IMG/VR virus record: IMGVR_UViG_3300030102_001931
Location: 1 to 34,842 of that record
Length of the DNA stretch: 34,842 nt
Source of the DNA: a virus
Lineage: Duplodnaviria > Caudoviricetes
Reading direction: 5' to 3' (one strand)
Part shown: piece after piece, positions 3,640 to 9,210 of the stretch
How positions within the stretch are numbered: the stretch's first letter is position 1
Layout: every line of letters starts with the position of its first letter
Notes under the pieces: generated by a model
What the model was told of the DNA's origin: nothing
Databases searched by the model: none
The model's input: the letters and a program-made list of their open reading frames with translations, nothing else
Program-made: the position numbers and the translations under genes

Positions 3640-3856
3640 TGCCCCCTCCTTACCGAAAAAGTTTATTTTTTATTTTTATTGATGGCTTGATCGAGGCAAA
3701 TAGGGCTCTTGAGTACGGTCAAGTGTACTCTGAGTACATCAGTGAGTACGGTGCAAAACTACCTTATCTTATTGTATACAAACACTTTTTCAGGATTGAG
3801 TACGTTGAGTACGGTCAAAACGTGTTTTTGAAAAAAAAAAAAACAAAGAGGGGGCA
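3640..3856. repeat. AT-rich TGAGTAC repeat/palindrome cluster (candidate origin, pac or operator region)
   Basis: TGAGTAC at 3710, 3731, 3743, 3797, 3806; palindrome TGTACTC-T-GAGTACA at 3724-3738; bounded by inverted TGCCCCCTC (3640-48) / GAGGGGGCA (3848-56); T-rich and A13 tracts. Confidence 0.65.
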
Positions 3857-3899
3857 AATCCCTTTTTAAGAAAAAATTAAATTATTTTCGTTCTGCCTC

Positions 3900-7144: not shown

Positions 7145-7334
7145 AATAACGTGTGAGGGCATGGTCAGCAGGACCATTTATGTTGATGACGCTTCTAGTT
7201 TAGAGGACGCAATCAACTATGCTCGAAGAGAGTTTTCGCTCCTTGTGGGTGCGAGAGAAGAGGATGTCGAAATAGCTGACATCTATAGTGAACCAGTAAA
7301 ATTAAAGGAGGTGAGTAATGAACCAGAAAGTTAG
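7128..7334 (+). CDS. Hypothetical protein
   Basis: AAGGAGG SD. Confidence 0.7.
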   Translation: MMKAYEITCEGMVSRTIYVDDASSLEDAINYARREFSLLVGAREEDVEIADIYSEPVKLKEVSNEPES

Positions 7335-7830
7335 TCTAGTAAGTTTAGCGGTGGAGAAAGCGTGGTCAAATGCTGCCAATGCAACCGAAGCCAAGGACAG
7401 GTATCTCGAGATGTTGAAGACGGATGAAGCATTGCGGACGGAGGCAACGGCTCGATACCTAGAGAAGATCGCACGTTGGGATACAGTTGTACGTCCTAAA
7501 TTAGATCGTGCCATGTTCAAGAGGCACGTTCTGAGCAAGGGTCAGACATCGACACCGAATGTATCGCGCAAGAATACGATGAAGATGTACGCGAAAGATT
7601 TGTTTGAGACACTCAGGTTGCCGGAGACAGGTGTTAAACTTGGGCAAGCAACGCGTCAGGACTTGGACAAGGCTATCTCGTTTGAGAAGTCTAGGGCGCA
7701 GCACCACACGCACCAACAGAGTTTTTGGTCTTCAATACAGAAGCGTCTTAAAAAAGACGATGCAATGGTCAAGGATGTTTGGACACCAGTAGAGATAGAG
7801 CAGACATACGAGGAGATATTGAACAAATGA
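7318..7830 (+). CDS. Basic 170-aa hypothetical protein abutting the TIGR array
   Basis: AAGGAGG SD; stop codon 8 nt before the first array unit. Confidence 0.8.
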   Translation: MNQKVSLVSLAVEKAWSNAANATEAKDRYLEMLKTDEALRTEATARYLEKIARWDTVVRPKLDRAMFKRHVLSKGQTSTPNVSRKNTMKMYAKDLFETLRLPETGVKLGQATRQDLDKAISFEKSRAQHHTHQQSFWSSIQKRLKKDDAMVKDVWTPVEIEQTYEEILNK

Positions 7831-7838
7831 TTAGTTAT

Positions 7839-8453
7839 GGGAGCCGTCATGACTGCGCAGTAATGCCTATGGAGGACCGCTCCCACCAGTTAGGGGAGGG
7901 TCATCAATGCGGCGCAGCAATGCCCCCTTTCGGGCACCCTTCCCGATCAGTTTATGGAGGCCAAAAATCCGCCACAGGAACGTCACCCCGACACCGCCTC
8001 CACCAGTTAGGGGAGGGTCAAGCTATCGGCGCAGCAATGCCATTAGAGATCTGCCCTTCCCGATCAGTTTATGGGAGCCAGTCGCGTTACGCAGCAATGC
8101 CCTGCAACCAATTGCTCCCACCAGTTAGGGGAGGGTCACGAAGCCGTCGCAGCAATGCCCCTGTGAACACACCCTCCTCGATTAGTTTTACGGAGGCCAA
8201 AAATCCTCCACAGGATCGTCACACCGACACCGCCTCCACCAATTTACGAGAGGTCAGCTTCGATTCGCAGAAATGCCATTTATCGAACGCCTCTCAAGGG
8301 AAGGGTCAATTAACCATCACAGGAATGTCATAAGGAGAACACCCTTCCACCAGTTTTGGGCCACTCTTCTAACTCCGAAAGGACAAGACGCCGCCGCCCA
8401 ATTTCACCAGAGGCCAACATAAAAACGCAGCAATGCCAAAAGGAACCCGCCTC
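7839..8453 (+). ncRNA. Stem-loop TIGR array (tandem interspaced guide RNA), 11 dual-spacer units
   Basis: Each unit = stem-CA-9 nt spacer A-13 nt loop repeat (CGCAGCAATGCCA type)-9 nt spacer B-Y-stem. Units at 7839-7884, 7893-7944, 7956-8001, 8010-8061, 8073-8119, 8128-8179, 8192-8237, 8248-8295, 8299-8348, 8356-8401, 8410-8453. Confidence 0.88.
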
Positions 8454-8472: not shown

Positions 8473-9210
8473 ATGGATACAAGATATGAAGACCCGACTA
8501 TCGCACAAATAAACTACTACTGGCGTGACCGCCAGAACATGGTACGAGCCGACACCAAACTGGTGTTGCAGATTAAAGCCATGTGCCGATCTTTACGAGA
8601 CGGTGACAAGAAAGAAGGTGATAAGTTCTACAAAGAACTAAGCACTGGTCAGGCTACACTGATCGAATACTCACAGTTCAATGCGTTGTTCGAGGCACGT
8701 AAGCCAATACTGCAAGAGCGTAAGCGTCTTGAAAAACAACTAGCCAACTATGCCAAGATACTGCCTGTCTCAACTTTTGTAGACAAGGTAAAAGGTTTCG
8801 GGCATCTTGGTCTTGCAGCCACTGTTGGAGAGATAGGCGACTTCATGGCCTATGACAAAGAACTTGACGGAATATACAAACGTGCAGGACTTGCCGTTAT
8901 TGAAGGTGAGCGTCAACGCAAACACTCCAACAAAGACATGGCTATACTGCATGGCTACAGTCCATCAAGACACGCTGTATTCTGGACAATCGGAGACAGT
9001 TTGTTGAAAGCCCAAGGAAAAGAAGAGAACGCAGGTCCATACAGACAAATCTATGACACTCGAAAGTTGATGGAACGTGAGAGAGTTGAGACGGACGGAC
9101 ACGCCCACAACAGGGCACTGCGGTACATGACTAAACGACTGATTAAAGATCTATACATAGAATGGAAAGGAGTATCTGATGATCAAGGAGTTCTGGAAAC
9201 GATTAACTAG
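8473..9210 (+). CDS. tasA: TasA-like RNA-guided DNA-binding protein (Nop/IS110 C-terminal domain, no RuvC/HNH)
   Basis: 245 aa from ATG 8473 (AAGGAG SD at 8460-65). Coiled coil, then VKGFGHLGLAATVGEIGDF, YKRAGL and HAHNRALRYMTKRLIKDLY motifs; no DEDD RuvC domain; directly follows the array. Confidence 0.85.
   Translation: MDTRYEDPTIAQINYYWRDRQNMVRADTKLVLQIKAMCRSLRDGDKKEGDKFYKELSTGQATLIEYSQFNALFEARKPILQERKRLEKQLANYAKILPVSTFVDKVKGFGHLGLAATVGEIGDFMAYDKELDGIYKRAGLAVIEGERQRKHSNKDMAILHGYSPSRHAVFWTIGDSLLKAQGKEENAGPYRQIYDTRKLMERERVETDGHAHNRALRYMTKRLIKDLYIEWKGVSDDQGVLETIN

Follow-up and report, generated by a model that had tools for sequence, protein, structure and literature searches.

A marine podovirus carries a stem-loop TIGR array next to a nuclease-free TasA, and we think it probable that this locus serves phage-versus-phage interference in which TasA binds the DNA of rival phages without cutting it. 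The window (the whole stretch of DNA that we analyzed, 34,842 bases) had been said in a preliminary description to hold three guides, in units 1, 9, and 11, that reconstruct Shine-Dalgarno (SD)/start codon regions, and gene starts were proposed to be selected for CRISPRi-like repression of chosen host, defense, or competitor phage genes. Targeting of gene starts is probably not a rule.

The window, a linear virus record, is 62% complete and encodes a DNA polymerase A, an AEP primase, UvrD and SNF2 helicases, a small terminase, and an SU10-type adaptor; HTVC023P-type marine podoviruses are nearest for its polymerase (50%), small terminase, and adaptor, and the sequencing runs with the window are marine or aquatic. 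By these genes, the window is a marine podovirus. The carriers of TasA comprise three podovirus types: one is HTVC023P-like, one has an HTVC010P-like capsid, and one is nearest to an Octadecabacter phage. Their spacers have a GC content of 44 to 46% throughout, although carrier GC content spans 42 to 54%. GTDB genomes were searched for TasA to find the host, and none carried it; the hosts are presumed to belong to the Roseobacter group and to be the same for carriers and targets. Two other stretches of the window were noted. About 900 bases at the left end of the record (positions 1 to 900) have no clear gene, and the noncoding positions 3700 to 3870, 5′ of terS, hold recurring 7-base words together with a short G-run/C-run pair, are matched by L089 and L095 guides at three mismatches, and are a possible origin or packaging signal.

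The locus has the following features:

7318..7830, plus strand: gene for a 170-aa protein, a candidate accessory gene that co-travels with the array and tasA
7839..8453, plus strand: TIGR array of 11 stem-flanked units (unit calls, stem covariation, folds)
7847..7877, plus strand: unit 1, with spacers A (7847-7855) and B (7869-7877) around the loop; as a target it reads SD, 7 nt, ATG, with a stop/start overlap
7904..8287, plus strand: units 2 to 8; spacer A starts at 7904, 7964, 8021, 8081, 8139, 8200, and 8257; no SD-ATG reading
8309..8339, plus strand: unit 9; spacer A 8309-8317, spacer B 8331-8339; B half SD-like, start position ambiguous
8364..8394, plus strand: unit 10, with spacer A starting at 8364; divergent loop
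8417..8447, plus strand: unit 11; spacer A 8417-8425, spacer B 8439-8447; target reads SD, 8 nt, ATG
8473..9210, plus strand: tasA, encoding a 245-aa solo Nop-domain protein (phmmer, structure model, Foldseek, alignment)

In each unit, two stem halves enclose box C, a spacer A of 9 nt, a 13-nt loop that is conserved, spacer B, and box D, in that order. Spacer B is 9 nt long except in unit 5, where it has 10 nt, and units 3 and 7 hold variants of one guide. We assembled 133 related loci (53 viral and 80 metagenomic), which together with the window gave 129 arrays and 1,274 units; these yielded 558 unique guides and, after variants were merged, 340 guide families. The 9-13-9 layout was found in 1,233 of the 1,274 units. 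Across 676 unique units, stem pairs 1 to 4 were retained in 98 to 99%, with compensatory changes on both sides, and covariation was also seen for the box C/D edge pair (C-G, 382; T-A, 133; T-G, 125) and the box C/D loop pair (G-C, 501; A-T, 79; G-T, 64). Stem covariation and folds showed that variable palindromic stems replace the edge repeats. By its anatomy, the locus is thus a stem-loop TIGR array with TasA. The assembled RNA contig of one relative spans array units and the 5′ end of tasA; the RNA contigs, all of them assembled, otherwise leave the array mostly uncovered, an absence that proves nothing, and together those of relatives give a weak hint of expression in relatives.

An open frame through the entire array was seen in the window (7779-8333) and in a relative (L025:9311-9973) and is probably a by-product of the repeats. 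Some spacers in the arrays of L017, L021, L024, L026, L030, and L031 are identical or similar to stem or box C sequence of the same array, as if they were aimed at other TIGR arrays or were array-derived copies. Arrays were masked during target searches.

TasA matched the Nop domain of TaTasR (PDB 9MTY) by phmmer (E = 1e-11). Its model (pLDDT 92.9) is helical from residue 8, and all ten Foldseek hits at E <= 0.001 were TasR/TasH chains (TM, 0.59 to 0.68), with which it shares a coiled coil and the Nop fold (9MTY, 9W04). In contrast to TasR and TasH, the 245-aa TasA has neither an HNH nor a RuvC domain, judged by the model and the lack of a Pfam hit, and its array is of the stem-loop rather than the dual-repeat type. 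Its homologues stop a few residues past the last helix, as read from an alignment of homologues. PHROG labels TasA a "transposase," and weaker fold hits led to IS110 recombinases, which work with a bridge RNA and have a Nop-like RNA-binding domain; TasA differs from these in its multi-unit array, its 245-aa length, the absence from its model of the N-terminal DEDD RuvC-like domain of IS110 transposases, and the absence of a Pfam IS110 hit (E <= 0.01). CRISPR systems of types IV and V-M and TldR proteins are of CRISPR or TnpB origin, use a single contiguous spacer, and require a PAM or TAM. They share with the present locus that they are non-cutting, RNA-guided DNA binders on mobile elements; the discussion of PMC12045711 names the two CRISPR types. 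VIPR systems, as presented in 10.64898/2026.10.15.759431, are likewise phage encoded and silence a competing viral element by RNA guidance, but their protein is unrelated, their guide code is noncontiguous, and they target a satellite recombinase, whereas the sites found here are spread over a tailed phage.

The system is of a known kind, stem-loop TIGR-TasA, and likely natural targets were found for the family. With the systems described in the main texts of PMC12045711, 10.64898/2026.09.09.750476 (MbTasA, BlTasA), and 10.64898/2026.08.11.744272 (PlTasA), it shares a solo Nop protein adjoining the array; units that combine a pair of 9-nt spacers with anchors resembling box C/D, palindromic stems that vary, and a loop that is conserved (called "intermediate" in PMC12045711); the tandem A + rc(B) target rule; and, it appears, a short C terminus. 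It differs in a 13-nt loop with its own consensus, in a cassette with a 5′ gene for a 170-aa protein that is common to three podovirus types, and in the natural targets mapped for its relatives. Both main TIGR papers, PMC12045711 among them, state in their main texts that natural targets are largely unknown and that the role of TasA and the origin of spacers are open; a literature search comprising little subscription content, and main texts without supplements, found no published natural TIGR targets. CRISPRi-like repression, as proposed in the preliminary description, is a likely action for this nuclease-free protein because it is a solo Nop-fold TasA and because other TasA proteins repress transcription: repression is reported for TasA and dead TasR, with MbTasA as the example shown, in the main text of 10.64898/2026.09.09.750476.

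Guides were read against targets as B + revcomp(A), that is, the other strand of A + rc(B). The preliminary description had used the same geometry, and it holds up in two ways. It fits what the main text of PMC12045711 gives for the 3′ overhang (8 nt) and for swapping A and B, an agreement that is our own deduction, and the same text reports tandem 18-bp binding without a PAM. Furthermore, motifs that span the junction and target matches occurred here in no other geometry. One such motif, picked post hoc from the data, is a palindrome made of a C run, an A+T core, and a G run across the A/B junction. It was present in the correct geometry in 11 of 558 guides and 7 of 340 families, compared with 0 to 1 when the geometry was wrong and 1.1 families after re-pairing (none of 5,000 rounds reached 7), and 9 of the 11 palindrome guides lie in the three tasA-proximal units. 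A seed pattern of 18 bases, merged from the palindromic guides of L010 and L098, led to six viral loci. One of them, L167, contains the L098 target exactly and, inside the large terminase gene, is also matched exactly by a guide of an unrelated family; this terL match is common to the relatives L167, L168, and L170, was unseeded, and has a chance probability of about 0.001. The other three of the six seed loci gave nothing further, and the palindrome guide of L053/L081 had zero exact matches in IMG/VR.

The target pool, gathered as relatives by terL likeness plus ten whole records, amounted to 133 loci, 1.43 Mb, and 975,792 distinct 18-mers; a second terL scan mostly duplicated the first, and terL in 301 family genomes gave four distant matches and little gain. 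At zero to one mismatch, 16 of 558 guides (3%) matched the pool in the proven geometry, three of them exactly. Wrong geometries gave 2, 1, and 0 matches, and 200 re-pairings gave a mean of 1.0 and a maximum of 5. Because the peptides used for gathering the pool included the terL site, we repeated the count without it: with the seed and the terL site left out, 13 guides matched at 10 sites (Poisson P ~ 1e-7). About a quarter of substitutions are synonymous by chance. At gene-body sites, 12 of 15 single mismatches were synonymous in the target frame (from 21 single-mismatch rows, we excluded 3 palindrome, 1 gene-start, and 2 unassigned rows). Two-mismatch matches, of which 2 of 39 were synonymous, were near the control level and mostly noise. 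Another 59,686 unseen bases from ten target contigs contained nothing within one mismatch, and two-mismatch matches numbered 4 versus 2, 0, and 1.

A matching guide was found in 28 of 129 arrays, including L069-L071, L072, and L077, whose TasA proteins are 92 to 94% identical to that of the window. Three guides of these close kin match the pool; none of the window's own 11 guides has a match there within two mismatches. Its own guides being unmatched, we infer that they aim at the same kind of phage because close kin match it and guides are shared among carriers. The sites number 12, 1 seeded and 11 unseeded, as follows:

L167:4044: seeded palindrome
L209:3180: second palindrome, in the same region, 3′ of the primase-helicase gene; a putative origin
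L170:5783 and L201:1652: large terminase
L204:484: small terminase
L187:2649: portal
L279:11088 and L279:10872: two tail-region genes
L204:4804: gene for a 114-aa protein adjoining an endolysin-like gene
L181:4473: body of a conserved gene for a 184-aa protein
L189:5403: start of a homologue of the 184-aa gene; SD, then GTG (L181 has ATG at the same place)
L183:9295 and L260:9944: noncoding site, no assignment

The 11 unseeded sites thus comprise eight inside genes, one gene start, one origin-like palindrome, and one unassigned site, and matched sites lie on both strands.

By gene content, the targets are HK97-like marine siphoviruses and provirus remnants. The phages, of about 33 to 37 kb, have an HK97-type terminase, portal, protease, capsid, tape measure, tail fiber, and primase-helicase, together with a long tail, and a gene that we read as encoding an AlpA-like DNA-binding protein (PHROG, "DNA binding protein"). 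An integrase is encoded in one locus, L211, which is classed as a provirus; none was found among the G016 proteins scanned. The target phages are likely temperate. Five of 11 GTDB terL loci are titled Paracoccaceae/Rhodobacteraceae, and 6 of 11 bear other names. There was no close cultured relative of the targets among the matches listed (best, ~56%), and tasA and the loop motif were absent from all 152 target loci. The idea that the targets are capsid-forming satellites was dropped, as G016 and G024 encode full tails. In L179, L211, L251, and L170, many small host-like cargo genes are interspersed, in the opposite orientation, among those for terminase, portal, and capsid; L211 and L204 look reduced, with no capsid or tail in the available stretch.

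Carrier phages were also searched as targets. Searching 706 kb of carrier loci with 276 guides, or 958 kb with 558 guides, gave no excess beyond the palindrome class, and eight whole carrier records plus the first 50 kb of CRP-901 gave no excess over wrong geometries beyond that class. Self- or kin-targeting was rejected on these counts, which, the palindrome class aside, were no higher than those in wrong geometries; the bins L011:5300, L024:3200, and L160:400 are heaps of three- to four-mismatch hits that we read as chance. Within the palindrome class, one guide matched the palindrome at L041:651 in a TasA-carrying podovirus with one mismatch, and because of this match other target groups may exist; targeting of podovirus by podovirus may also occur. 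C-run/A+T core/G-run palindromes with short repeats (L025:5766, L025:2844, L032:2087, L036:5934, L041:654, and L140:1746) lie 5′ of terS in one carrier clade and are found in CRP-901 as well, and guides from other carriers come within one to two mismatches.

In the mechanism that we propose, processed guides would load a TasA dimer. In rival HK97-like phages, which are likely temperate and share the presumed hosts, this dimer would clamp sites of 18 bp. During infection, these complexes would form roadblocks at packaging, tail, regulatory, and origin-like sites of a resident or coinfecting temperate phage, and its transcription or replication would be blocked with no cut made. The guides appear to be drawn from places all along a rival's genome (terminases, portal, tail, a gene of the lysis region, one gene start, and origin-like palindromes), so that SD-ATG guides such as those of units 1, 9, and 11 would be expected occasionally and no gene-start rule would be needed; since TasA binds DNA, the SD would matter merely as a location. 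Binding might instead aid recombination with, or parasitism of, the siphovirus through DNA bending or module exchange, given that the main text of PMC12045711 proposes RNA-guided aid to an integrase for TasA and that the 170-aa gene travels with the cassette; we find this very improbable, for the sites lie on both strands, scattered over packaging and tail genes that are essential, as interference predicts, and the carriers' scanned proteins (a subset) included no integrase.

The SD-to-ATG readings of units 1 and 11 are as originally claimed. For unit 9, the SD-like B half stands and the start is ambiguous: its ATG lies just 2 nt past the SD, and at the canonical 9-nt spacing an ATG would begin at target position 17 and overrun the 18-mer. 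The statement that 3 of 11 exceeds random sampling is correct for the window alone (strict definition, 2 of 11, P ~ 0.005 to 0.012; loose definition, 3 of 11, P ~ 0.002 to 0.005); among about 100 distinct arrays, the probability of at least one with at least two strict guides is 0.37, and of at least one with at least three loose guides, 0.16. Strict SD+ATG guides made up 6 of 340 families versus 5.1 in re-pairings (P = 0.41) and 4.2 from genomic sequence (P = 0.24), and 4 of 330 versus 3.1 expected when the window's families were left out (P = 0.38). Before variants were merged, the count was 17 of 558 unique guides versus 9.1 (P = 0.003), and in the close clade, with the window's own families included, it was 4 of 97 versus 1.2 to 1.9 (P = 0.03 to 0.11). 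Promoter words (-35/-10) were not enriched among guides. On the target side, starts accounted for 1 of 11 unseeded sites versus 5% of random positions by our own ORF caller (P = 0.43), a sample that, at 11 sites, is still compatible with starts truly making up 3 in 11 (P = 0.15). Selection of gene starts is thus not supported and, by the preliminary description's own two criteria, largely contradicted, with no family-level enrichment across the 129 homologous arrays and with most unseeded matches inside genes, and the gene-start guides are probably ordinary samples of rival DNA, taken with no preference for gene starts.

The 18-mers of the three units were searched as the preliminary description had advised, with a result for one of them. 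Two variants of unit 1 had exact matches at five IMG/VR loci, four of them independent, all at stop/start gene junctions in unrelated phages of 43 to 59% GC; units 9 and 11 had zero exact matches there. Unit 1 thus shows a resemblance to a phage gene junction, without indicating which one. Two of the matched phages, G009 and G010, were rejected as true targets when their whole records contained no other guide match within one mismatch. Among whole target records, unit 1 had nothing within two mismatches in ten others, unit 11 had nothing within three mismatches in G016-G020, and unit 9 had none in G021-G025; unit 9 has a three-mismatch likeness to a gene start in the carrier phage L033.

Could guides nevertheless be selected for the ribosome binding sites and start codons of chosen genes, in the close clade or with B on the SD side? 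The window and close-clade counts lean that way, but the other families, at 4 of 330, do not, and the one true start among the unseeded sites (L189:5403, with B on the SD side, the same polarity) stands against a background of 5%. The SD is on the B side in 6 of 6 strict families, and variants of units 1 and 11 retain SD and ATG, as does, with GTG for ATG, a one-base variant of unit 9 in L074/L075; the SD half of unit 11, however, recurs with an unrelated A half in L005/L082. That all four independent unit 1 matches are gene junctions is circular, as chance matches to an SD-ATG word always land on gene starts. Moreover, Tas proteins bind DNA, and dead SpTasH, according to the main text of 10.64898/2026.08.11.744272, represses from promoter or ORF sites alike, so there is no clear gain from an SD as such. 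We regard a gene-start rule as unlikely.

Repression of host genes by the SD-like guides is, in our judgment, quite unlikely. Its best case is unit 1, which agrees at 16 of 18 bases with an ATPase/permease junction of a taurine-type ABC transporter in HIMB11-like Roseobacters (L261:1501-1518 in G015, also G014 and five close relatives); all seven genomes retain the match, and the two bases that disagree lie at the 3′ end of spacer B. Yet 151 candidate-host-related genomes held no exact match to unit 1, the host base at position 9 is absent from all three guide variants, and four other genomes gave unrelated one-mismatch matches. The transporter label was read from the translation, and the host is putative. 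Units 9 and 11 each had 1 one-mismatch match in the 151 genomes, compared with 5 and 10 control matches, and none in further candidate hosts. Of the target classes named at the outset, competitor phages are thus indicated by the family matches, and host or defense gene targets were found for none of units 1, 9, and 11.

Guides also change by recombination. Half-swaps between units gave 33 pairs (19 sharing A and 14 sharing B) versus 0.55 by chance, with exchange of A and B halves seen in the arrays of L005/L082, L002/L003, L012/L020/L015, and others, and these swaps show later recombination of guides. Neither seed protection nor codon periodicity was seen among guide variants, the substitution profile being flat along the spacers (P = 0.43), and for these reasons many guides may be drifted or chimeric. 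Taken further, this would make most guides, including those of the window, decayed or recombined relics, with SD-ATG an accident of half-swapping and drift, and 97% of guides do lack a match. Unmatched guides are, however, expected under sparse target sampling, stems and boxes are intact, matched guides differ from their targets at synonymous positions, and the unit 1 family, kept as 11 copies in as many arrays from two carrier clades, varies at target position 9 alone; we rate the relic account as unlikely.

Under the interference that we favor, how guides are acquired may be linked to the upstream gene. Of 91 loci that could be evaluated, 83, belonging to three podovirus types, have a homologue of the 170-aa gene that ends directly 5′ of the array. 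The protein matched no Pfam or PHROG family and has 127 distant relatives at E <= 0.001; its model is all helical with no clear fold match, and fold and Atlas searches returned nothing usable (best Z, 4.5), which shows neither novelty nor absence. It is a candidate accessory or acquisition factor. The contiguous 18-bp matches span the A/B junction, which suggests a single fragment of the target as the source of both spacers. A more ambitious reading, which we put forward tentatively and think less likely true than false, is that the 170-aa gene, TIGR array, and TasA form a mobile cassette, common to several marine podovirus families, for adaptive, nuclease-free immunity of lytic phages against resident or coinfecting temperate ones, which would split contiguous 18-bp pieces of rivals into two spacers and favor origin-like palindromes in tasA-proximal units, with the 170-aa protein as its accessory or acquisition factor. 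The cultured Rhizobium phage RHph_X2_25 (L334:535-2601, MW960032.1) encodes a Tas homologue (31%) with apparent stem-loop TIGR units at about 1140-1530, judged by eye, and an upstream gene of 199 aa faintly resembles the 170-aa family (E = 0.023, probability 2%).

This phage would be a tractable model for such a locus. For one TasA family, guides are now paired with targets on solid statistical grounds within a defined group of rival phages, which makes binding, repression, and competition testable on natural sites. In addition, an origin of both spacers from one fragment would constrain models of acquisition, and the tightly linked 170-aa gene is a candidate partner.
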